A DNA stretch of 12,352 bases. Source: a virus (lineage: Duplodnaviria; Heunggongvirae; Uroviricota; Caudoviricetes). The DNA lies in IMG/VR virus record IMGVR_UViG_3300021279_000011; one strand, given 5' to 3'. The translations under genes and the position numbers were made by a program. The notes beneath the pieces are model-generated. The model ran no database searches, had not been told where the DNA came from, and saw nothing but the letters and a program-made list of their open reading frames with translations. Shown here piece by piece: positions 1 through 8,303 of this stretch (position 1 is its first letter; the number at the start of each line of letters is the position of its first letter).

Positions 1-165
1 TCTGTGTGCTGTATCTTCTTTCGGGTGGGTACAGGGCAGTGCGCGATTGCTGGCGCAGGCAGATTGATAAAAGGGCCGCAGAGAAAATCAGCGCCAGTCA
101 GTCAGCCGGAAGCAAACCCGAAGAGCCCATTACTCCTTAACAACCCCTTTCAACGAGAAAACCCT

Positions 166-450
166 ATGTCAGAAGTAAAACCCCTGGTCACTGCTGATGC
201 AGTGAAAGACGCGCTGCGCTCAGAAGATGTGCGTGGAGCACTGAAACAGAAAGTCCGCCAGACATTTGAAGCGCAGATAGAAGCAGATGTGGATGCGATT
301 CTGGATACGATACTGGGAGAGCAGCCAGGCGAACAGCCAGAGCCGGAACCGCAACCGGAAGATATCACCTCAGAAAACGGCGATATTCAACCGGAATCAC
401 CGGTGGTTGATGCGACTGAAGCACAACCTGAACCGGGCACCATGCTGTAA
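166..450 (+). CDS. Hypothetical small acidic protein (94 aa) upstream of the lysis cassette
   Basis: ATG at 166 in the frame of track ORF 4..450, stop TAA 448-450. Weak SD-like GAG about 8 nt upstream. The C-terminus is Pro/Glu-rich low complexity (PEPEPQPE). The in-frame sequence upstream of 166 (CCIFFRVG...) does not look protein-like, so 166 is the preferred start. Family not recognised. Confidence 0.4.
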   Translation: MSEVKPLVTADAVKDALRSEDVRGALKQKVRQTFEAQIEADVDAILDTILGEQPGEQPEPEPQPEDITSENGDIQPESPVVDATEAQPEPGTML

Positions 451-461
451 GGGTGAGTCAG

Positions 462-491
462 GGCCATCAGTAAAGTACTGCTGGCCTTTTT
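462..491 (+). terminator. Rho-independent terminator-like hairpin (possible tR' analogue) just upstream of the holin
   Basis: GGCCATCAG (462-470), loop TAAAGTA, CTGCTGGCC (478-486) pairs 8 of 9 positions, followed by TTTTT (487-491). It lies between the stop at 450 and the holin start. Confidence 0.5.
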
Positions 492-525
492 CATGTTGTG
501 AGCTTCCGTGTGCGGGAGACGGGGT

Positions 526-741
526 ATGTACCAGATGGAAAAAATCACAACAGGTGTGTCATACACCACGTCAGCGGTGGGAACGGGCTACTGGTTCCTG
601 CAGTTGCTGGACAAAGTCTCCCCGTCTCAGTGGGCGGCAATAGGCGTGCTGGGGAGTCTGCTGTTTGGGCTGCTGACATATCTGACGAACCTGTATTTCA
701 AAATCAAAGAGGACCGGCGTAAGGCCGCCCGGGGAGAGTGA
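526..741 (+). CDS. S: Class II holin, phage 21 S21-type pinholin (71-aa and 68-aa forms from dual start)
   Basis: The translation [71 protein letters not shown] closely matches the S21/EssD-type pinholin as recalled (two TMDs, C-terminal [13 protein letters not shown]). In-frame ATGs at 526 and 535 reproduce the S21 71/68 dual-start spacing. GGGAG at 514-518 lies 7 nt before ATG 526. Stop TGA 739-741. Confidence 0.85.
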
Positions 742-744
742 ATA

Positions 745-1302
745 ATGAACCATGAAGAAATGAATCAGCGCTTCAGTCGCCTGGAAAATGAAATTGCTGA
801 ACTGAATAAAAAACTGTCGACGCTGATGCCTTCTGAAGATGAAAAAAAACGCCGCGATGAGCAGTTTGCTGCGTTTGACGATTATTGTCGGAAAGTGATG
901 AGCAGAAATCTCGCAGAGTGTTTCAGTATTCATAATGATAATTTCAGTGAGCTGGAATGGGAGTGTAACCGGCCATCCTTTGTTGTATCCGGTGATGGTG
1001 TGAAAATAACCATCTCAGAAAATGGGAAAGTAACACCTCCATCGCACCAGCACAGTGAGGAGCTCATTGAATTTGCCATTGATTACCTGAAGAACAATAA
1101 AAAACAGGGGCTGATGCAGCGCATTGGTCGTTGCATGGGGTATCTGCAGGTAGCCGCTGAGATTGAAGCGCTGGCCAGTGGTGCGGACAAGGATTCAGTT
1201 GTGCGGGAGGCACTTCTTCGTGATTTTGATCATCTGCCCTTTAAAAAAGTGCCGGCTTACTGGCTTCATCCCGGACTGACTTATCTGAAAGTGCGTATTT
1301 AG
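745..1302 (+). CDS. Hypothetical 185-aa protein inserted between holin and endolysin (accessory/moron candidate)
   Basis: ATG 745 follows the holin stop by 3 nt, with GGGAGAG 6-8 nt upstream; stop TAG 1300-1302. Predicted soluble, with an N-terminal coiled-coil-like segment (RLENEIAELNKKLSTL) and no TM segment. Hand count of the first 120 nt gives about 43% GC, against about 52% for the first 120 nt of the portal gene. Family not recognised. Confidence 0.6.
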   Translation: MNHEEMNQRFSRLENEIAELNKKLSTLMPSEDEKKRRDEQFAAFDDYCRKVMSRNLAECFSIHNDNFSELEWECNRPSFVVSGDGVKITISENGKVTPPSHQHSEELIEFAIDYLKNNKKQGLMQRIGRCMGYLQVAAEIEALASGADKDSVVREALLRDFDHLPFKKVPAYWLHPGLTYLKVRI

Positions 1303-1338
1303 TGGGACTGGGACAGCGGCTGAATATTTAATATATCC

Positions 1339-1872
1339 ATGAACACAAAAATCAAATACGGCCTGTCGGCTGCCGTTCTGGCGTTGATTGCCGCAGGGGC
1401 TTCTGCGCCTGAAATCCTCGACCAGTTTCTGGATGAAAAGGAAGGCAACCACACCACGGCATACCGTGATGGTGCGGGTATCTGGACCATCTGCCGAGGT
1501 GCCATCATGGTGGATGGTAAGCCTGTGATTCCTGGCATGAAGCTGTCGAAGGAAAAATGCGACCAGGTTAACGCCATTGAGCGTGATAAGGCGCTGGCAT
1601 GGGTGGAGAAAAACATCAAAGTGCCACTGACTGAACCCCAGAAAGCGGGTATTGCGTCATTCTGTCCTTACAACATTGGCCCCGGTAAGTGTTTCAGCTC
1701 AACGTTTTACCGGAAACTGAACGCCGGAGACCGTAAAGGCGCATGTGCTGAAATTCGTCGCTGGATATATGACGGTGGTCAGGACTGCCGTATTCGTTCA
1801 AACAACTGTTACGGTCAGGTATCCCGTCGTGACCAGGAGAGCGCGCTGGCGTGCTGGGAAATCGACAGATAA
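1339..1872 (+). CDS. R: SAR endolysin (phage 21 R21 / RrrD-RrrQ-type lysozyme, glycoside hydrolase family 24)
   Basis: The translation MNTKIKYGLSAAVLALIAAGASAPEILDQFLDEKEGNHTTAYRDGAGIWTICRG... has the N-terminal signal-anchor-release hydrophobic segment and the E-x8-D-x5-T catalytic arrangement of T4-lysozyme-like SAR endolysins. It is near-identical over most of its length to E. coli cryptic-prophage lysozymes as I recall them. Stop TAA 1870-1872. Confidence 0.9.
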   Translation: MNTKIKYGLSAAVLALIAAGASAPEILDQFLDEKEGNHTTAYRDGAGIWTICRGAIMVDGKPVIPGMKLSKEKCDQVNAIERDKALAWVEKNIKVPLTEPQKAGIASFCPYNIGPGKCFSSTFYRKLNAGDRKGACAEIRRWIYDGGQDCRIRSNNCYGQVSRRDQESALACWEIDR

Positions 1873-1981
1873 GCAGAATATTTTGCTGAAAAATGAGGTT
1901 TGCTCACATGGACGTATAACACGAAATCCTGCAAATTGGCAAAATGTAAGTGAATAAAGTCAAAACAGTTGTTTAACACTC

Positions 1982-2008
1982 AGGCACCGTAATGGTGCCT
2001 TTGTCATT
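1982..2008 (+). terminator. Hairpin with T-rich tail downstream of the endolysin (possible terminator)
   Basis: AGGCACC (1982-1988), loop GTAAT, GGTGCCT (1994-2000) is a perfect 7-bp stem, followed by TTGTCATTT. Confidence 0.35.
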
Positions 2009-2011
2009 TCT

Positions 2012-2033
2012 GCGCATCTCACGCGCATCTCAC
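2012..2033. repeat. Perfect tandem direct repeat, 2 x 11 bp (GCGCATCTCAC)
   Basis: GCGCATCTCAC at 2012-2022 is repeated exactly at 2023-2033, about 110 bp upstream of the ATG at 2143. Confidence 0.6.
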
Positions 2034-2142
2034 AACACAGAACCTTTCAGGATGACCCTTGAGGATACCGGTTTGGCTGTCGGTGCCTTTCTGTGGGCTG
2101 GATTCCTGTGAGACAAGGTTCATCACTAAAAGGAAATAACCG

Positions 2143-2712
2143 ATGAATATGATGACCGTGCCGTTTCACGGCAACTCTCTTTATGTAGTTAACCATAATG
2201 GCGAGCCATACGTTCCCATGAAACCTGTCGTTGCGGGGATGGGGCTGGCCTGGCAATCACAGTTGGCTAAGTTAAGACAGCGTTTTGCGTCAACTATAAC
2301 GGAAATCGTTATGGTTGCTGAGGATGGGAAACAACGCAATATGGTGTCCATGCCACTTCGAAAACTTGCCGGCTGGCTACAAACTATTAATCCCAACAAA
2401 GTAAAACCCGAAATCCGCGATAAGGTCATCCGGTATCAGGAAGAGTGCGACGATGTTCTTTACGAGTACTGGACGAAGGGTTTTGTCGTTAATCCCCGTA
2501 AAATGAGCGTGATGGAAGAACTCAACCAGGCTTGTGCTGACATGAAACGGGATAAAAACATTGCCAGTGTGTTTGCTACCGGGCTGAATGAGTGGAAACA
2601 GGTTAAAGCCGCGCATGTATCAAAAATCCGTACGCTGGTAAATGAAGCGAATATGCTGATTGATTTTGTCCTGGCTGATACAGGCAAAGGGAAAATAACA
2701 AAGGCGGATTGA
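2143..2712 (+). CDS. Antirepressor-like protein (P22-type antirepressor N-terminal-domain-like), 189 aa
   Basis: The N-terminus MNMMTVPFHGNSLYVVNHNGEPYVPMKPVVAGMGLAWQSQLAKL resembles the N-terminal domain of P22-type antirepressor proteins, by recollection only. AAGGA lies about 9 nt upstream of ATG 2143. Stop TGA 2710-2712. Confidence 0.65.
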   Translation: MNMMTVPFHGNSLYVVNHNGEPYVPMKPVVAGMGLAWQSQLAKLRQRFASTITEIVMVAEDGKQRNMVSMPLRKLAGWLQTINPNKVKPEIRDKVIRYQEECDDVLYEYWTKGFVVNPRKMSVMEELNQACADMKRDKNIASVFATGLNEWKQVKAAHVSKIRTLVNEANMLIDFVLADTGKGKITKAD

Positions 2713-2858
2713 TGGGGTGGCTAATGATATCAGATAAACTCATAACGCTGGTGAAGAGCCTCTGTGTACTTGTCGGCATTTCATTTTCACTAATGCTGGT
2801 TGCTCTTTTTCTTTCCATGGCCTGGATGGCGTTGACTTCGGCAGGGCTGGTGGGGTGA
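2712..2858 (+). CDS. Small hydrophobic membrane protein (48 aa), translationally coupled, absent from the ORF track
   Basis: ATG 2712 overlaps the upstream stop (TGATG), with a second in-frame ATG at 2724. The translation MGWLMISDKLITLVKSLCVLVGISFSLMLVALFLSMAWMALTSAGLVG is almost entirely hydrophobic (one or two TM helices). Stop TGA 2856-2858 overlaps the Rz GTG start at 2855 (GTGA). Confidence 0.4.
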   Translation: MGWLMISDKLITLVKSLCVLVGISFSLMLVALFLSMAWMALTSAGLVG

Positions 2859-3328
2859 GCATAAACCGAATGCTTTCCGCGTTTACCGTTATTCTGCTGG
2901 TGGTCTGTGGTGCGCTTAGTCTGGGGCTGAATCATTACCGCGATAACGCCATAACCTACAAAGCGCAGCGCGATAAAAAAGTCAGTGAGCTGGAGCTGGC
3001 AAATGCAACCATTACTGATATGCAGCAGCGCCAGCGTGATGTTGCTGCACTTGATGCCAGATACTCGAGGGAATTAGCCGATGCGAGAGCTGAAAATGAA
3101 ACTCTGCGTGCTGATGTTGCCGCTGGTCGTAAGCGCCTGCGGATCAACGCCACCTGCCCCGGTACCGTGCGTGAAGCCACCGGCACCTCCGGCGTGGGCA
3201 ATGATGCCGCCGTCGAACTCTCTCCGGTTGCTGGACGAAACGTTCTCGGTATCAGAGACGGAATCATCAGCGACCAGGCAGCATTGAGAATGCTTCAGGA
3301 ATATATCCGCACTCAGTGTATTAACTAG
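2855..3328 (+). CDS. Rz: Rz i-spanin (inner-membrane spanin subunit)
   Basis: The translation ...LNHYRDNAITYKAQRDKKVSELELANATITDMQQRQRDVAALDARYSRELADARAENETLRADVAAGRKRL... closely matches lambda Rz as recalled (N-terminal TMD, coiled-coil periplasmic domain). Start is GTG 2855 or the in-frame ATG 2870. Stop TAG 3326-3328. Confidence 0.9.
   Translation: MSINRMLSAFTVILLVVCGALSLGLNHYRDNAITYKAQRDKKVSELELANATITDMQQRQRDVAALDARYSRELADARAENETLRADVAAGRKRLRINATCPGTVREATGTSGVGNDAAVELSPVAGRNVLGIRDGIISDQAALRMLQEYIRTQCIN
3081..3287 (+). CDS. Rz1: Rz1 o-spanin lipoprotein, embedded in the +1 frame of Rz
   Basis: MRELKMKLCVLMLPLVVSAC has the lipobox LVVSAC with Cys at residue 20, the same position as in lambda Rz1, followed by a proline-rich mature region (GSTPPAPVPCVKPPAPPAWAMMPP). 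Fully nested within Rz, as in lambda. Alternative start ATG 3096. Confidence 0.85.
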   Translation: MRELKMKLCVLMLPLVVSACGSTPPAPVPCVKPPAPPAWAMMPPSNSLRLLDETFSVSETESSATRQH

Positions 3329-3351
3329 TATTTTTGTTATTCGGAGAATGC

Positions 3352-3576
3352 ATGAAGAAATTACTGGTAACCGTAAAGCCTTTTCAGGGAACAATTCCGT
3401 TCCGTATTTTGCAGCGTGGTCGTGTTCTTGTTGAAGGTTCGTTCAGTGGTAAATGTACGCAATTACACTCCCGGACCTTTCAGGTGAATGCCACGAATGA
3501 AGAGCTAACCGTTGAGTGTACGATGAATGCCGCTAAATGCCGCATGGTATCTGCTGCATTACAGCCAGTGTGTTGA
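3352..3576 (+). CDS. Hypothetical 74-aa Cys-containing protein downstream of Rz
   Basis: ATG 3352 preceded by GGAGA (3343-3347). The translation is MKKLLVTVKPFQGTIPFRILQRGRVLVEGSFSGKCTQLHSRTFQVNATNEELTVECTMNAAKCRMVSAALQPVC. No signal peptide or lipobox, and not similar to lambda Bor. Coding status uncertain. Confidence 0.35.
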   Translation: MKKLLVTVKPFQGTIPFRILQRGRVLVEGSFSGKCTQLHSRTFQVNATNEELTVECTMNAAKCRMVSAALQPVC

Positions 3577-3778
3577 GCAAGCTTATTATCCATGCGCGGT
3601 ATCGTCGCCGTATTCCCGTATTAACAGAGACCGCAGCCCGACAGGGAGACTCCTCTGCGCGAGTGTGCGGGGATAATCAAAAACGATACACACCGGGGTT
3701 TACCGCGTTAACGGAGCGCGGCGTTGTCCCCTCATGGTCGCTGGTCCGGTGCGATGGTGGAAGAAACCGGACTACATT

Positions 3779-3803
3779 AAAAATGATAACCATTATCATT
3801 TTT
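3779..3803. repeat. Perfect 11-bp inverted repeat with 3-nt spacer (25-bp palindrome) upstream of the cosN-like motif
   Basis: AAAAATGATAA (3779-3789), CCA, TTATCATTTTT (3793-3803); the arms are exact reverse complements. A second inverted repeat, GTCCGGT (3744-3750) / ACCGGAC (3766-3772), lies just upstream. Confidence 0.6.
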
Positions 3804-3832
3804 GCGGGTCCTCCTGGTGGGGTGGGTCTGAA

Positions 3833-3851
3833 CACGGGGCGGGCGGCGCGG
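3833..3851. other. cosN-like cohesive-end motif (terminase cleavage region)
   Basis: ACGGGGCGGGCGGCGCGG resembles the lambda cos junction ACGGGGCGGCGACCT as recalled, at the lambda-equivalent position about 150 bp upstream of the small-terminase start and followed by an AT-rich cosB-like region (3900-3985). The exact nick positions cannot be read from sequence. Confidence 0.45.
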
Positions 3852-3995
3852 AAAAAGGCGCATTTTTTGATTTTTATGGCACCATCACCACCAGTGTAAG
3901 TTATTGATATATAGAAAAATAAAAATTTTTAGTGTCGAATTTGGTTGTTTTTTGTTCATCACTGGCGTGTATTTACATAATTTTCAGGGGGAGTT

Positions 3996-4472
3996 ATGGA
4001 TCGTGAATTAAAAAATCTGCATCTGAATATTTCCCAACTGGCCGCATTATCCGGTGCTCATCGACAGACTGTTGCGGCTCGGGTAAAAAACATAAGCCCA
4101 ACCGGTGGTCATGAGAGCAATCTCAAACTGTACCGACTGACAGATATCCTTGCCGAGCTGATGAAAGCTCCTCTGCCTGTAGATAACGAGGAAATGGATC
4201 CTCATGCGCGTAAAGCATGGTACCAGTCAGAACGTGACCGACTGAAATTTGAGCAGGAAACTGGTCAGCTTGTGCCAGTCAGTGATGTCAGGCGGTCCTT
4301 TTCTGTCGTGGTGAAAGCGATAGTTCAGGTACTGGAAACCTGGCCTGACCGGCTGGAGAGGGACAGGGGGTGGACCGCATCACAACTGAATGAAGTACAG
4401 ATTGTGGTTGATGAGATCCGCGACACACTGGAAAAGGCAGTCATTGACTGCTGTGATGAGGCCGATATGTGA
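3996..4472 (+). CDS. Nu1: Terminase small subunit (lambda Nu1-like)
   Basis: First gene after the cos-like region. N-terminal HTH-like segment (NISQLAALSGAHRQTVAARV) and overall Nu1-like organisation and size (158 aa). AGGGGGAG precedes ATG 3996. The stop overlaps the large-terminase start (ATGTGA). Confidence 0.8.
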   Translation: MDRELKNLHLNISQLAALSGAHRQTVAARVKNISPTGGHESNLKLYRLTDILAELMKAPLPVDNEEMDPHARKAWYQSERDRLKFEQETGQLVPVSDVRRSFSVVVKAIVQVLETWPDRLERDRGWTASQLNEVQIVVDEIRDTLEKAVIDCCDEADM

Positions 4473-6592
4473 ATCAGGTGAACGAGAGCCATAGCCGCGC
4501 ATCCGATATCTGGCGCGAAGTGGCCTCGCTGTTTCGCCCACCTGGCCGGTTACCAGTAGCGGAAGCCATCAGGCGTTATATGCGGGTACCACGGGGAGCC
4601 AATACTTCCGGTCCGTGGGAGTCATCGCTGACGCCCTATATGATTGACCCCATTAATACATTATCAGCCCGTGAATATGACGCGGTGGTGTTTGTGGGAC
4701 CTGCGCGAACCGGGAAAACCGAAGGGCTGATTGATGGCTGGATTGTGTACGGCATCATCTGTGATCCGGCGGATATGCTGGTGGTGCAGATGACTGAGAC
4801 GAAGGCGCGTGAGCATTCCAGAACGCGTCTTTCCAGGACGTTTCGCCACAGTCCGGAGGTCAGCAAGCGCCTCAGTCCTTCCCGTAATGACAACAACGTC
4901 CACGATAAAATGTTTCTTGACGGCTCCTTCCTGAAGATTGGCTGGCCGTCGATCACTGTATTTTCCTCTTCGGATTACCGTCGTGTGGCGCTGACGGATT
5001 ATGACCGTTTCCCTGAAAACGTGGACGGGGAAGGGGATGCCTTCACGCTGGCCTCAAAGCGTACCACCACCTTTATGTCCTCGGGGATGACCCTGGTCGA
5101 GAGTTCACCGGGGCGGGATATCACTGACACCAAATGGCGTTGTGGTGGCGCACATGAGGCACCGCCAACAACGGGGATCCTGTCACTGTATAACCGGGGA
5201 GACCGCCGCCGGTGGTACTGGCCGTGTCCGCACTGCGGGGAATATTTTCAGCCGGTGATGGATAACATGACCGGTTACCGGAATAACCCTGATTTTGTGG
5301 CTGCCGGGCAGGCGGCCCGCCTGATGTGTCCGCACTGCCGCGGCCTGATTGCTCCGGAACAGAAGCGTGAACTGAATAACCAGGGGATCTGGCTGCGGGA
5401 AGGCGAACGGGCAGCGGCGGATGGCAGTATCACCGGAACCCCCCGAAATTCCAGAATAGCAAGTTTTTGGATGGAGGGGCCGGCTGCGGCGTTTCAGACC
5501 TGGGAACAACTGATTTTTAAACTGCTGGCGGCAGAAGAAGAGTATGAGCGAACCGGCAGTGAAGAGACCCTGAAAGCGGTGGTGAACACCGATATCGGAC
5601 GACCCTATCTGCCCCGTTCAGCCACGGAACAGCGTAAAAGTGAACTGCTTGAACAGCGTGCCGAGCCGTTTCCCCGGCGATCTGTGCCGGATGGTGTGCG
5701 TTTTATTGAGGCAACGGTTGACGTACAGGGCGGTAAAAATCGCCGTTTTGTTGTGCAGATCACCGGATACGGAGAGCAGGGGGAACGCTGGATTGTTGAT
5801 CGCTACAACATCCGGCATTCACTGCGCTGCAGTCCCAACGGTGAAAGTCTGCCGGTTGATCCGGCGGCATATCCGGAGGACTGGGATTTGTTGCTGACGG
5901 ATGTGTTCCATAAAACATGGCCGCTGGCTTCTGATCCGGATGTGCGCATGCGTCTGATGGCCATGGCGGTGGATACGGGAGGGGAAGCCGGGGTGACAGA
6001 TAACGCCTATCGTTTCTGGCGTCGTTGCCGGAGTGACGGACTGGGCAACAGGGTGTTTCTGTTCAAGGGGGATGGTCTTCGCCGTGACAGGCTGATTAAC
6101 CGTACCTTCCCGGATAATACCGGCAGAAGTGCCCGCCGTGCCAGAGCCAGTGGCGATGTCGCGCTGTGGCTGGTTCAGACGGATGCGTTTAAGGACCGTG
6201 TAAATAATGCCCTGTGGCGTGACACACCAGGGCCGAACTATATCCACTTTCCCGACTGGCTGGGGCGGTGGTTTTACGATGAGCTGACCTATGAAGAGCG
6301 CGGCAGTGACGGAAAATGGCGAAAACCGGGCAGGGGCGCTAACGAGGCGTTTGACCTGCTGGTTTATGCGGATGCGCTTGCCGTTCTGCATGGTTACGAA
6401 AAGATCCGCTGGCCCTCCGCACCGGACTGGGCACAGCGGGAAACGTGGCTCGTCTTCCCGCAGGAGCGTTCTGGTGAAACGGTATCCCCGGAACTGACGG
6501 CCGGGGCAGAAAAACGCCGTCGCCGGAAGGAAAAACTGCGCACAGAGCGTGCGGAAGATAATCCATGGATAACATCAGGAGGCTGGTTGTGA
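4469..6592 (+). CDS. A: Terminase large subunit (lambda gpA family)
   Basis: 707 aa. Walker A-like VFVGPARTGKTE; the motif WYWPCPHCGEYFQ parallels lambda gpA ACPHCGEEQY. GTG start 4469 overlaps the Nu1 stop. Stop TGA 6590-6592. Confidence 0.92.
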   Translation: MNQVNESHSRASDIWREVASLFRPPGRLPVAEAIRRYMRVPRGANTSGPWESSLTPYMIDPINTLSAREYDAVVFVGPARTGKTEGLIDGWIVYGIICDPADMLVVQMTETKAREHSRTRLSRTFRHSPEVSKRLSPSRNDNNVHDKMFLDGSFLKIGWPSITVFSSSDYRRVALTDYDRFPENVDGEGDAFTLASKRTTTFMSSGMTLVESSPGRDITDTKWRCGGAHEAPPTTGILSLYNRGDRRRWYWPCPHCGEYFQPVMDNMTGYRNNPDFVAAGQAARLMCPHCRGLIAPEQKRELNNQGIWLREGERAAADGSITGTPRNSRIASFWMEGPAAAFQTWEQLIFKLLAAEEEYERTGSEETLKAVVNTDIGRPYLPRSATEQRKSELLEQRAEPFPRRSVPDGVRFIEATVDVQGGKNRRFVVQITGYGEQGERWIVDRYNIRHSLRCSPNGESLPVDPAAYPEDWDLLLTDVFHKTWPLASDPDVRMRLMAMAVDTGGEAGVTDNAYRFWRRCRSDGLGNRVFLFKGDGLRRDRLINRTFPDNTGRSARRARASGDVALWLVQTDAFKDRVNNALWRDTPGPNYIHFPDWLGRWFYDELTYEERGSDGKWRKPGRGANEAFDLLVYADALAVLHGYEKIRWPSAPDWAQRETWLVFPQERSGETVSPELTAGAEKRRRRKEKLRTERAEDNPWITSGGWL

Positions 6593-6801
6593 GCACAGAA
6601 GAAGCCAGAGAAATGATACAGCGGTACCGTGAAGCGGAAATGGCCGTACTGGAGGGGAAGTCTGTCACCTTCAACGGGCAGCAACTGACGCTGGAAAGCC
6701 TTTCCCAGATCCGCGCCGGACGTCAGGAGTGGGAACGCAGGCTTGCCGCGATGGTGAGCCGCAGGCGGGGAAAACCGGGATTTAAACTGGCGAGGTTTTA
6801 A
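6589..6801 (+). CDS. W: Head-tail joining / head completion protein (lambda gpW-like)
   Basis: The C-terminus ...SRRRGKPGFKLARF parallels lambda W ...QRRRGPAGFYV. AGGAGG (6577-6582) lies 6 nt before GTG 6589, which overlaps the terminase stop (GTGA). The track's ATG 6565 is an in-frame alternative without an RBS. Confidence 0.75.
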   Translation: MSTEEAREMIQRYREAEMAVLEGKSVTFNGQQLTLESLSQIRAGRQEWERRLAAMVSRRRGKPGFKLARF

Positions 6802-8303
6802 TGGCAATTATTGATGATGTGATAGGCGTGTTTTCCCCCGGGTGGAAAGCAGCCAGACTGCGTTCAAGGGCGTTAATCATGGCCTATGAGGCGGTGAAAC
6901 CGACCCGGACACATAAAGCCCGGCGGGAAAATCGCTCTGCCGATCAGCTCAGTAAATACGGTGCGGTTTCCCTGCGGGAGCAGGCCCGTTTTCTGGATAT
7001 CAATCATGACCTGGTGATTGGTGTGTTTGACAAGCTGGAAGAGCGGGTGATTGGTGCCAGGGGAATTATTGTGGAGCCTCAGCCATTACGAAAAAACGGG
7101 GAAATGGCGGCTGAGCTGGCTGCGGATATCCGCCGGTTGTGGGCTGAATGGTCCGTGAGTCCGGATGTGACAGGGCAGTATACCCGTCCCGTGCTTGAAC
7201 GTTTACTGCTGCGGACCTGGCTGCGGGATGGTGAAGTGTTTGCGCAGATGGTCAGTGGTGCGGGAAACGGTCTGGAACGGACGGCGGGAGTGCCATTCTG
7301 GCTTGAGGCGATGGAGCCGGATTTTGTTCCCATGCGCACAGATGAATCCGCCGGACTGAATCAGGGGGTTTTTCTTGATGAGTGGGGAAGACCGAAAAAA
7401 TATCTGGTTTATAAAAATTATCCGGTCAGCGGCCGGCAGAGTGATACGAAAGAAATCGCTGCCGGAAAAATGATCCACCTGAAGTTCACTCGTCGTCTGC
7501 ACCAGACGCGAGGCTCATCCATGTTATCGGGGGTGCTGATGCGGATCAGTGCCCTTAAGGAGTATGAGGATGCGGAACTGACAGCGGCGCGTATTGCTGC
7601 GGCGCTGGGACTGTATATCCGTAAAGGTGACGGACAGGACTATGAAGATCCGGGGAGCAAAGAGACCGAGCGGGAAGTCCATATCACCCCGGGTATTATT
7701 TATGACGATTTGCGCAAGGGCGAGGATATCGGCATGGTCAAATCTGACCGTCCCAATCCCAACCTTGAAACTTTCCGCAACGGCCAGTTGCGTGCAGTGG
7801 CAGCAGGCAGTCGTCTGAGTTTTTCCAGTGCGGCGCGTAACTATAACGGCACCTACAGCGCCCAGCGGCAGGAGCTGGTCGAGTCCACGGATGGTTACCT
7901 GATCCTGCAGGACTGTTTTATTGGCGCGGTAACCCGCCCGGTGTACCGGACATGGCTGAATATGGTGGTTGCGGCAGGTCTGCTGAAAATTCCGGCGGAT
8001 GTGGAGATGAAAACGCTATATAACGCGACGTATTCCGGTCCGGTGATGCCGTGGATCGACCCGGTTAAGGAAGCTGAAGCCTGGAGAATTCAGATCCGGG
8101 GTGGTGCAGCGACAGAATCTGACTGGGTGCGTGCCGGTGGGCGCAATCCGGATGAGGTCAAACGTCGCCGCAAGGCTGAAATTGATGAAAACAGCAGACT
8201 GGGGCTGGTCTTTGATACTGACCCCGTCAACGACAAAGGAGGCAACAGTGCCGGAACTGAACGACAGTATCAGCGCGACACCGAAAGCCAGCATGAAGAA
8301 TAA
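6801..8303 (+). CDS. B: Portal protein (lambda gpB family)
   Basis: 500 aa at the gpB position directly after W. ATG 6801 overlaps the W stop (TAATG) and is preceded by GAGG. Size and position fit a lambda-family portal; no motif-level alignment was done. Confidence 0.8.
   Translation: MAIIDDVIGVFSPGWKAARLRSRALIMAYEAVKPTRTHKARRENRSADQLSKYGAVSLREQARFLDINHDLVIGVFDKLEERVIGARGIIVEPQPLRKNGEMAAELAADIRRLWAEWSVSPDVTGQYTRPVLERLLLRTWLRDGEVFAQMVSGAGNGLERTAGVPFWLEAMEPDFVPMRTDESAGLNQGVFLDEWGRPKKYLVYKNYPVSGRQSDTKEIAAGKMIHLKFTRRLHQTRGSSMLSGVLMRISALKEYEDAELTAARIAAALGLYIRKGDGQDYEDPGSKETEREVHITPGIIYDDLRKGEDIGMVKSDRPNPNLETFRNGQLRAVAAGSRLSFSSAARNYNGTYSAQRQELVESTDGYLILQDCFIGAVTRPVYRTWLNMVVAAGLLKIPADVEMKTLYNATYSGPVMPWIDPVKEAEAWRIQIRGGAATESDWVRAGGRNPDEVKRRRKAEIDENSRLGLVFDTDPVNDKGGNSAGTERQYQRDTESQHEE

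Follow-up and report, generated by a model that had tools for sequence, protein, structure and literature searches.

An apparently undescribed structured leader RNA precedes antirepressor-like genes in a Shiga toxin phage-like lysis region and in many other prophages

What is a regulator gene doing inside a lysis cassette? The question is raised by the IMG/VR virus record IMGVR_UViG_3300021279_000011 (Caudoviricetes), of which we analysed one stretch of 12,352 nucleotides (nt), here called the window. Between its endolysin gene and the spanin gene Rz lies an interval that holds a terminator-like hairpin, a tandem repeat, an antirepressor-like gene (ant) encoding 189 amino acids (aa) and a small open reading frame (ORF) of 48 aa. 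A preliminary description had read this interval as a self-contained cassette whose regulatory architecture is not explained by lysis, and had likened the two coding sequences to an exclusion or abortive-infection module. Every element that it listed (hairpin with T-rich tail, repeat, gene with ribosome-binding site, small ORF, and the overlaps between starts and stops) was found where it had been placed. We report here that the stretch between the hairpin and ant is a conserved, structured leader RNA. The interval is probably best understood as a separable leader-gene insertion module that carries a translational gate, next to an independent, Rz-proximal membrane gene.

The leader, which extends from a short hairpin (P0) up to the ATG of ant (Table 1), recurs at 73–100% identity upstream of many unrelated genes, in phages and prophages of Enterobacterales, an Actinobacillus phage and a Halomonas genome. 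Positions 2012–2148 are 87–93% identical to stretches lying directly 5' of sb54, which follows Rz in the Salmonella phage ST64B, of a post-Rz gene in a P22-like phage, and of a 'DNA binding protein' gene among the tail genes of a Klebsiella phage; in an Actinobacillus phage the stretch is found at 73%, 5' of a KilA-N gene that follows the endolysin. Pattern scans recovered at least 75 true instances of several sequence types in IMG/VR and ~36 among the GTDB species genomes, the latter in Raoultella, Pantoea, Erwinia, Edwardsiella, Kluyvera, Tatumella, Serratia, Citrobacter and other genera, plus Halomonas. Within 5426 complete E. coli genomes, blastn placed the leader at 2973 sites in 880 genomes (median 3 copies per genome, up to 10), with nothing annotated beneath the matches. 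A covariance model (R1), built with nested helices only and searched against the retrieved loci, gave 111 matches in 99 sources, among them divergent second copies that share a phage with another leader. In all instances the orientation of the leader and its distance to the downstream Shine-Dalgarno (SD) sequence and ATG are fixed.

No Rfam 15 family matches the leader: searches at E <= 1 over the window, at E <= 10 on 1950–2170 and at the gathering threshold across 16 loci returned chance-level or unrelated hits only. No hammerhead core was seen in it by eye, none of the records examined carries an annotation of it, and literature searches by leader sequence strings and keywords found no description. 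A 19-aa leader peptide (MTLEDTGLAVGAFLWAGFL, 2052–2111) was considered and rejected, the Shiga toxin (Stx) phage type Stx2-86 stopping after 5 codons and type B having no ATG. The leader is widespread and apparently undescribed.

The genes that follow the leader are diverse in their domains. Among 66 distinct downstream proteins we counted KilA-N (26), Phage_pRha (22), ORF11CD3 (16), P22_AR_N (5), HNH_3 (5), ANT (4), P63C (4), Bro-N (2), T5orf172 (2) and AntA (1). Iyer, Koonin and Aravind reportedly described, in a protein-focused study of 2002, a set of domain-shuffled phage regulators made of Bro-N, KilA-N, Rha, P22_AR_N, ANT/KilA-C, T5orf172, P63C and ORF11CD3. That domain set is the one found behind the leader, which adds a common denominator at the level of RNA. 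Judged by these comparisons, the leader is what a domain-shuffled class of antirepressor-like regulators shares, the ant gene of the window is one interchangeable cargo, and the mobile unit consists of hairpin, leader and gene. The idea of a self-contained unit inserted between endolysin and Rz is supported, with the leader included in the unit. The Actinobacillus phage vB_Apl-pPE4 (locus L008, 576–740) carries a second, divergent leader (65 bits) 5' of a gene annotated 'tellurite resistance protein', and leader cargo may extend beyond the regulator class.

Aligning the leaders revealed several conserved helices, two of which are engaged in pseudoknots. The first concerns the tandem repeat. 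An exact duplication of 11 bp (GCGCATCTCAC, at 2012–2022 and 2023–2033) does stand in the window, where ~0.003 would be expected by chance in 12 kb. It is exact only in this lineage; what is kept elsewhere is the first unit and the following GCGC, that is, a GCGC / 7-nt loop / GCGC hairpin. The repeat of the preliminary description is, as we read the alignment, hairpin P0 plus a lineage-specific duplication of the P0 loop in the linker. The P0 stem varies (GCGC/GCGC, GCGU/ACGC and others), its pair 19–32 being CG in 94 and UA in 5 cases. The P0 loop pairs with a downstream GUGAGA to form pseudoknot PK-L, whose two strands switch jointly between haplotypes (UCUCAC/GUGAGA, UCACAC/GUGUGA, UCGCAC/GUGCGA, UGCCC/GGGCA and CGCCCG/CGGGCG); 95.6% of its alignment cells are paired, and the central pair is GC in 39, UA in 39 and AU in 19. 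Because PK-L was absent from the model that built the alignment, this test is unbiased.

The second pseudoknot arises where helix A crosses helix S. For helix A we counted at least 10 compensated variants, and since its length differs between types (6 bp in type B, 7 bp in type A), which defeats anchored column counts, we tested it by permuting partners and computing duplex energies: the mean was –7.64 kcal/mol for native partners compared with –3.68 kcal/mol for permuted ones, and 0 of 5000 permutations were as good. Helix S joins an anti-SD:SD part to a helix C part. In the former, CCUUUCAG is invariant in 64 representatives and its pairing with CUAAAAGG reaches 99.7–100% (helices 3–4); in the latter there are many compensated variants, among them a perfect 19–20 bp helix in one locus (L007), and the energy is –15.49 compared with –10.40 kcal/mol when permuted (0 of 5000 as good). 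Hairpin B lies inside; its distal stem is 95.8% paired with GU/UG/GC exchanges, again with 0 of 5000 partner permutations as good. The near-invariant GGC.G belongs to none of the well-supported helices, and G2096–G2097 take part only in a weakly supported alternative helix, P3. Over the model alignment, 82.7% of cells are paired compared with 33–46% in slid controls, 25 of 36 leader pairs change on both sides, and 0 of 500 shuffles reach the observed score. G·U outnumbers A·C by 197 to 49 within the well-aligned helices, to which the count was limited since over all helices, with helix A misregistered, it is uninformative; the excess fits an RNA read from the plus strand. The leader is a structured, multi-pseudoknotted RNA supported by covariation.

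These observations bear on whether the conserved 135 bp might act as DNA, as a recombination 'boundary sequence' or an operator, or as a self-cleaving or processing site in RNA, with no part in translation. The stretch is a recombination joint, as shown by high identity between otherwise unrelated phages and by a natural recombinant leader (L110, 2505–2669) with the break inside it: a 5' part of the Stx2-86 type (P0 and a helix A strand) is joined to a 3' part of the 933W type, which leaves both helix A and PK-L mismatched. GCGC-N7-GCGC might also serve as a palindromic site for a protein. Compensatory changes in five helices, of which two are pseudoknots, the far greater tolerance of G·U than of A·C, and the fixed orientation and distance to the downstream SD and ATG argue the other way, and for the ribozyme variant no Rfam ribozyme family matches the leader. 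We regard a DNA element or processing site of this kind as highly improbable.

To what does the RNA structure amount at the start of the gene? The SD core of 102 distinct leaders is seldom unpaired: the mean probability is 0.061 (median 0.006), compared with 0.43 after shuffling of the 5' part, and in 98 of the 102 the native value is the lower one. Minimum-free-energy folding and RNAalifold both pair the anti-SD with the SD, and the 5' strand of helix A abuts the anti-SD. Imposing an open SD yields, as the next-best nested fold, a rod (P1, 2040–2046/2115–2121; P2, 2048–2052/2104–2108; P3; B) that costs +4.4 to +7.5 kcal/mol in most leader types. The ribosome-binding site of the window's gene, AAAAGG, lies nine bases 5' of its ATG. 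As the preliminary description had said, the regulatory architecture of the gene is not explained by lysis.

How the leader is transcribed is suggested by what lies upstream of it. In 86 of 98 distinct contexts a hairpin with a T-run, comparable to that of the window and variable in stem sequence, occurs within 60 nt 5' of the leader; at two loci (L018 and L039) only a few bases, and no hairpin, separate a TAA stop-like triplet from the start of the leader. A scan for sigma-70-like promoters returned 0 sites in positions 1–4500 of the window, and a visual check revealed no conserved sigma-70, sigma-E, sigma-32, sigma-54 or LexA box. We propose that an insertion module made of a terminator-like hairpin, a ~135-nt leader and one antirepressor-like regulator gene sits in the late operon, that the leader is transcribed within the late, antiterminated mRNA, and that the hairpin would keep other transcription out, so that the gene would be expressed only from the late transcript. 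In the default fold, CCUUUCAG and the adjacent strand would pair with the SD region and block translation of the gene. P0, the pairing of its loop with GUGAGA and helix A surround the sequestering helix and may lock or open the gate. The leader would most likely be a conformational gate that sets when, or how much, regulator is made, and its input may lie in a ligand, in a protein, in RNase processing or in co-transcriptional kinetics.

Several points weigh against this proposal. The leader types are few and kin by descent, and the permutation counts given above overstate significance for that reason. In the nested model the SD of the window's own variant is unpaired with a probability of 0.36, looser than the family median of 0.006. 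Covariation for the rod is weak (0.113 compared with 0.106 in shuffles, of which 22 of 500 reach the score); the rod (P1+P2+P3), our first structure model, was dropped on this account and kept as an alternative open fold only. By sequence, helix A, PK-L and the long helix may either coexist or alternate. The upstream terminator could point to a promoter of the leader that escaped detection, and translational control is deduced from structure only. The regulator itself adds a further point: the phi24B-type gene, named d_ant, was proposed to be an anti-repressor and the target of the 24B_1 small RNA without a direct test, and its antirepressor activity is a proposal only (PMC4426718).

A stronger version of the proposal would make the leader a true signal-sensing switch, a bistable, orphan riboswitch-like RNA that responds to a ligand or factor; we hold this to be doubtful. 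The narrower case of a ligand-binding riboswitch would take the pseudoknotted core (the P0 loop pairing with L3, helix A, GGC.G and CCUUUCAG) as aptamer and the anti-SD helix as platform. Several pseudoknots, near-invariant unpaired nucleotides and an alternative helix overlapping the SD are the usual translational anatomy, and the leader is conserved across genera 5' of functionally related, non-homologous genes. It resembles the SD-sequestering pseudoknotted riboswitches (preQ1-II/III, SAM-II/V) in its compact pseudoknots, near-invariant loop nucleotides and SD-pairing platform, and it shares with riboswitches in general a conserved, covariation-supported structure whose expression platform overlaps the SD. 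It differs from the preQ1 and SAM classes in having no Rfam match and in preceding phage regulators. No ligand can be read from these genes, which are regulators and not enzymes or transporters; the invariance of CCUUUCAG is already explained by its pairing with the SD, and the weak covariation of the open fold counts against switching by this route. A ligand-binding riboswitch seems to us unlikely.

RNA control of antirepressor translation has precedents in sar of P22, c4 of P1/P7 and IsrK of Gifsy-1 (PMC12197685). The leader is like c4 and IsrK in being an upstream RNA on the same transcript that pairs with the ribosome-binding region, and in falling into variant classes that look like specificities; it differs in sequence and fold, with all partners inside ~135 nt and two pseudoknots. 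A c4-type antisense system would have the 5' part of the leader (P0 loop, helix A strand and anti-SD), either released or as a separate RNA, repress in trans any ant-like mRNA with matching target boxes, its types being immunity specificities as in immI of P1/P7. Two complementary boxes (the P0 loop with GUGNGA, and the 5' flank plus anti-SD with their targets) do control, on this reading, a gene of the antirepressor class, and the pairing variants fall into discrete classes. The immI region of P1 has the order c4-icd-ant, which RNA, targets, SD and gene mirror here. The multiple leader copies per E. coli genome also speak for this reading, and where a phage or locus holds two leaders (L006, L007, L008, L030, L034, L039, L127, L136, L149 and L158) the copies always differ in helix A and/or PK-L type. 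Such differences could reflect orthogonal specificities, or mere avoidance of direct repeats.

The Rfam models for C4 (RF01695), c4-a1b1 (RF03163), isrK (RF01394) and isrJ speak against a c4-type system, since they never match the leader and yet match genuine copies in two loci (L183 and L013); the true C4, c4-a1b1 and isrK copies in L183 score 49–74 bits, away from the leader and 1.8 kb upstream of it. Both strands of each helix lie within 120 nt, so that intramolecular pairing should dominate, and evidence of processing is nil. We consider action in trans decidedly unlikely. The L183 locus (3925–7513), in a prophage of Lelliottia wanjuensis, shows a complete Gifsy-1-like arrangement: it holds a Q-like gene, the isrK / c4-a1b1 / C4 RNAs (4701–4901), a Bro-like antirepressor, a holin and an endolysin, and then the leader (6687–6850) before a Rha-like gene, so that both RNA systems stand in one phage.

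We return to the cargo that the gated leader carries in the window. Pfam assigns the 189-aa protein a P22_AR_N domain (PF10547, 1.2e-45, residues 5–113) and ORF11CD3 (5.5e-6), with no match to P22_AR_C. It matches phrog_524, 'anti-repressor Ant', at positions 7–210 of 317 only, about two thirds of the profile. Its homologues form 2581 clusters, and nearly all of the 120 best-scoring ones, which come from many Enterobacterales, are ~189 aa long; the protein is not a truncation. P22_AR_N and the phrog_524 match are shared with P22 Ant, and the differences are threefold: firstly, the window protein has no P22_AR_C and carries ORF11CD3; secondly, it belongs to a stable family of its own of ~189 aa, where the P22 type has ~300 aa and two domains; thirdly, its gene sits in the lysis cassette (endolysin - ant - Rz), that of P22 in immI (mnt/arc/sar). 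An AlphaFold model (pLDDT, the predicted local distance difference test, 74.6) has an N-terminal alpha/beta domain followed by two long helices. Against the PDB, phmmer with the protein gave nothing meaningful and Foldseek with the model gave no significant match (best E 0.18), and no fold was assigned.

The gene is also as common as the preliminary description had suspected. The interval matches 325 GenBank phage records and is present at >=80% query coverage in 693 of the 5426 complete E. coli genomes. Identity over 1875–2825 is 98–99% with 933W, VT1/VT2-Sakai, Stx2 II and BP-4795 (ORF49-ORF50), in the same order R - ant - small ORF - Rz. In the GenBank records of the Stx phages (933W, Sakai, BP-4795) the two are annotated 'ant' and 'hypothetical protein', and in the E. 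coli genomes the Prokaryotic Genome Annotation Pipeline names them 'phage antirepressor N-terminal domain-containing protein' and 'hypothetical protein'. The pair of ant-like gene and small ORF is already annotated, abundant and ordinary in Shiga-toxin-type prophages.

Does the small ORF belong to ant, as the overlap of its ATG with the ant stop (TGATG) would suggest? Its frame is open in 11 distinct nucleotide versions, and pN/pS, the ratio of nonsynonymous to synonymous polymorphism, is 0.55 in frame compared with 0.94–1.01 in the other frames. One transmembrane segment is predicted (the Kyte-Doolittle 19-residue window reaches 2.57). The ORF matches phrog_4906 (3.9e-28), and its homologues form 88 clusters at 90% identity, 43–48 aa long, of which those with a named source all come from E. 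coli or from Stx phages of E. coli. Where relatives lack ant, the start is the equivalent of the second ATG (2724, MISDKL...), which follows a strong GGGAGGA site; the conserved small protein is taken to be 43–44 aa long for this reason. By these criteria the small ORF is a real, E. coli-restricted gene for a predicted single-pass membrane protein. Considered as a candidate holin, antiholin or other lysis membrane protein, it has one predicted transmembrane domain, lies 5' of Rz and matches no Pfam family; searching the literature by keyword and locus tag gave no relevant description.

The small ORF proves separable from ant. In phage PhiR12_2 (L009) the small ORF follows a different 60-aa membrane ORF, without ant and with its own GGGAGGA ribosome site, and in PhiR5_1 and Lys8385Vzw its upstream neighbour is another leader-driven gene, of 231 aa. 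Phages lacking ant share with the window the block of small ORF and Rz. Because it is present without ant and behind other genes, the small ORF travels with Rz and not with ant, and the two genes are not an obligate pair. Its stop (TGA, 2856–2858) overlaps the GTG at 2855 that opens the Rz frame (GTGA), and it is probably translated together with Rz. It would be a separate, small, single-pass inner-membrane gene of the Rz-proximal block of E. coli lambdoid prophages.

In the exclusion or abortive-infection module, the Ant-like protein would be a DNA-binding sensor and the small protein a membrane effector. The overlapping start and stop would fit such a pair, small hydrophobic effectors are common in defence systems, and the site is a hot spot for accessory genes. 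Yet neither protein matches a family in PADLOC-DB 2.0 (0 families at E <= 0.1), the small ORF occurs alone or with other partners, the homologues of ant, spread over many genera, reach far past the E. coli-only small ORF, and behind the same leader KilA-N, Rha and other genes can take the place of ant. We give the two-gene module hardly any credence.

Two further known arrangements resemble the leader-gene module in part. Type III toxin-antitoxin systems of the ToxIN kind have tandem repeats of ~36 nt, a terminator and an endoribonuclease; here the repeat is 2 x 11 nt and unconserved, the hairpin precedes it, and neither a PADLOC nor a toxin match was obtained for the downstream protein. Morons, in the sense of Hendrix and Juhala, are accessory genes of late operons with their own promoter 5' and a terminator 3'; the cassette behaves like one in occupying an insertion slot, and differs in that no sigma-70-like site was found in 1–4500, that its terminator-like hairpin lies upstream and that no terminator stands between ant and Rz.

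Table 1. Positions of the leader RNA, its helices and the surrounding genes in the window
Feature	Position	Strand	Remarks
P21-type pinholin	508–741		
185-aa ORF	745–1302	+	Between pinholin and endolysin
Endolysin, lysozyme family	1339–1872		Pfam Phage_lysozyme
Interval studied	1873–2858		Between endolysin and Rz
Terminator-like GC-rich hairpin with T-rich tail	1982–2010	+	Stem AGGCACCGTAATGGTGCCT at 1982–2000, then TTGTCATTTC
Structured leader RNA	2011–2142	+	~135 nt, from P0 up to the ATG
Hairpin P0	2011–2015 / 2023–2027 (2011–2027)	+	Stem TGCGC/GCGCA, 7-nt loop ATCTCAC; overlaps the 2012–2033 repeat
Pseudoknot PK-L	2017–2022 / 2108–2113	+	P0 loop UCUCAC with GUGAGA
Helix A	2036–2042 / 2089–2095	+	CACAGAA with UUCUGUG; crosses helix S (pseudoknot)
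Helix S, anti-SD:SD part	2043–2050 / 2126–2133	+	CCUUUCAG with CUAAAAGG, SD region of the ant-like gene
Helix S, helix C part	2051–2061 / 2114–2124	+	GAUGACCCUUG with CAAGGUUCAUC
Internal hairpin B	2062–2071 / 2080–2088 (2062–2088)	+	AGG..CCGG with UCGG..CCU
Conserved GGC.G	2096–2100	+	>=97% conserved across 102 distinct leaders
Ant-like gene ('ant'/'d_ant' of Stx phages)	2143–2712	+	189 aa; P22_AR_N and ORF11CD3
Small membrane-protein ORF (predicted)	2712–2858	+	48 aa from ATG 2712; conserved core 44 aa from ATG 2724
Rz i-spanin, with Rz1 embedded	2855–3328	+	Pfam Phage_lysis 2.4e-39; context, outside the cassette
Small terminase, DUF1441 type	3996–4472
Large terminase	4469–6592

The window represents the late region of a lambdoid prophage that resembles Stx phages (Table 1). 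The Stx phages 933W, VT2-Sakai, BP-4795 and phi24B have the same cassette in the same order, and the window departs from them 3' of a mosaic breakpoint at 2825, within the small ORF: upstream it is 98–99% identical to phages of the 933W/Sakai type, and downstream, over the final 33 nt of the small ORF and across the Rz junction, it matches another lineage (P13374, PhiR12_2). At the site of the cassette PhiR12_2 carries a different terminator-like hairpin and the 60-aa ORF, which has a hydrophobic C-terminal half (L009, 2304–2486), and for this reason we take the gap between R and Rz to be a general insertion slot for small genes.

Elsewhere in the lysis region, the 185-aa ORF (745–1302) has no Pfam family and matches phrog_1085 only over the C-terminal part of the profile; its position is annotated DUF1327 in relatives, and it forms a further accessory slot within the lysis cassette. 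After Rz, a 74-aa ORF (3352–3576, plus strand) matches only positions 100–172 of the 291-position phrog_2571 and may be a gene fragment, and the ~420 bp that precede the small terminase gene (3577–3995) contain no convincing ORF.

What is apparently new at this locus is the leader RNA, the pair of ant gene and small ORF being already known. One in six complete E. coli genomes contains the leader, at about three copies each, and the reference Stx phages 933W and Sakai have it as well. One shared control element links the heterogeneous 'antirepressor/KilA/Rha/Bro' genes of phages, which suggests that these genes are expressed under the same condition, and a single reporter construct would give a handle on when the whole gene class is made. 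If a signal is sensed, the leader would bear on prophage induction and on the biology of Shiga-toxin phages. Should it prove to be a bistable switch, it would couple a cellular signal to prophage cross-talk or late regulation in hundreds of enterobacterial prophages, those of Shiga-toxin phages among them.

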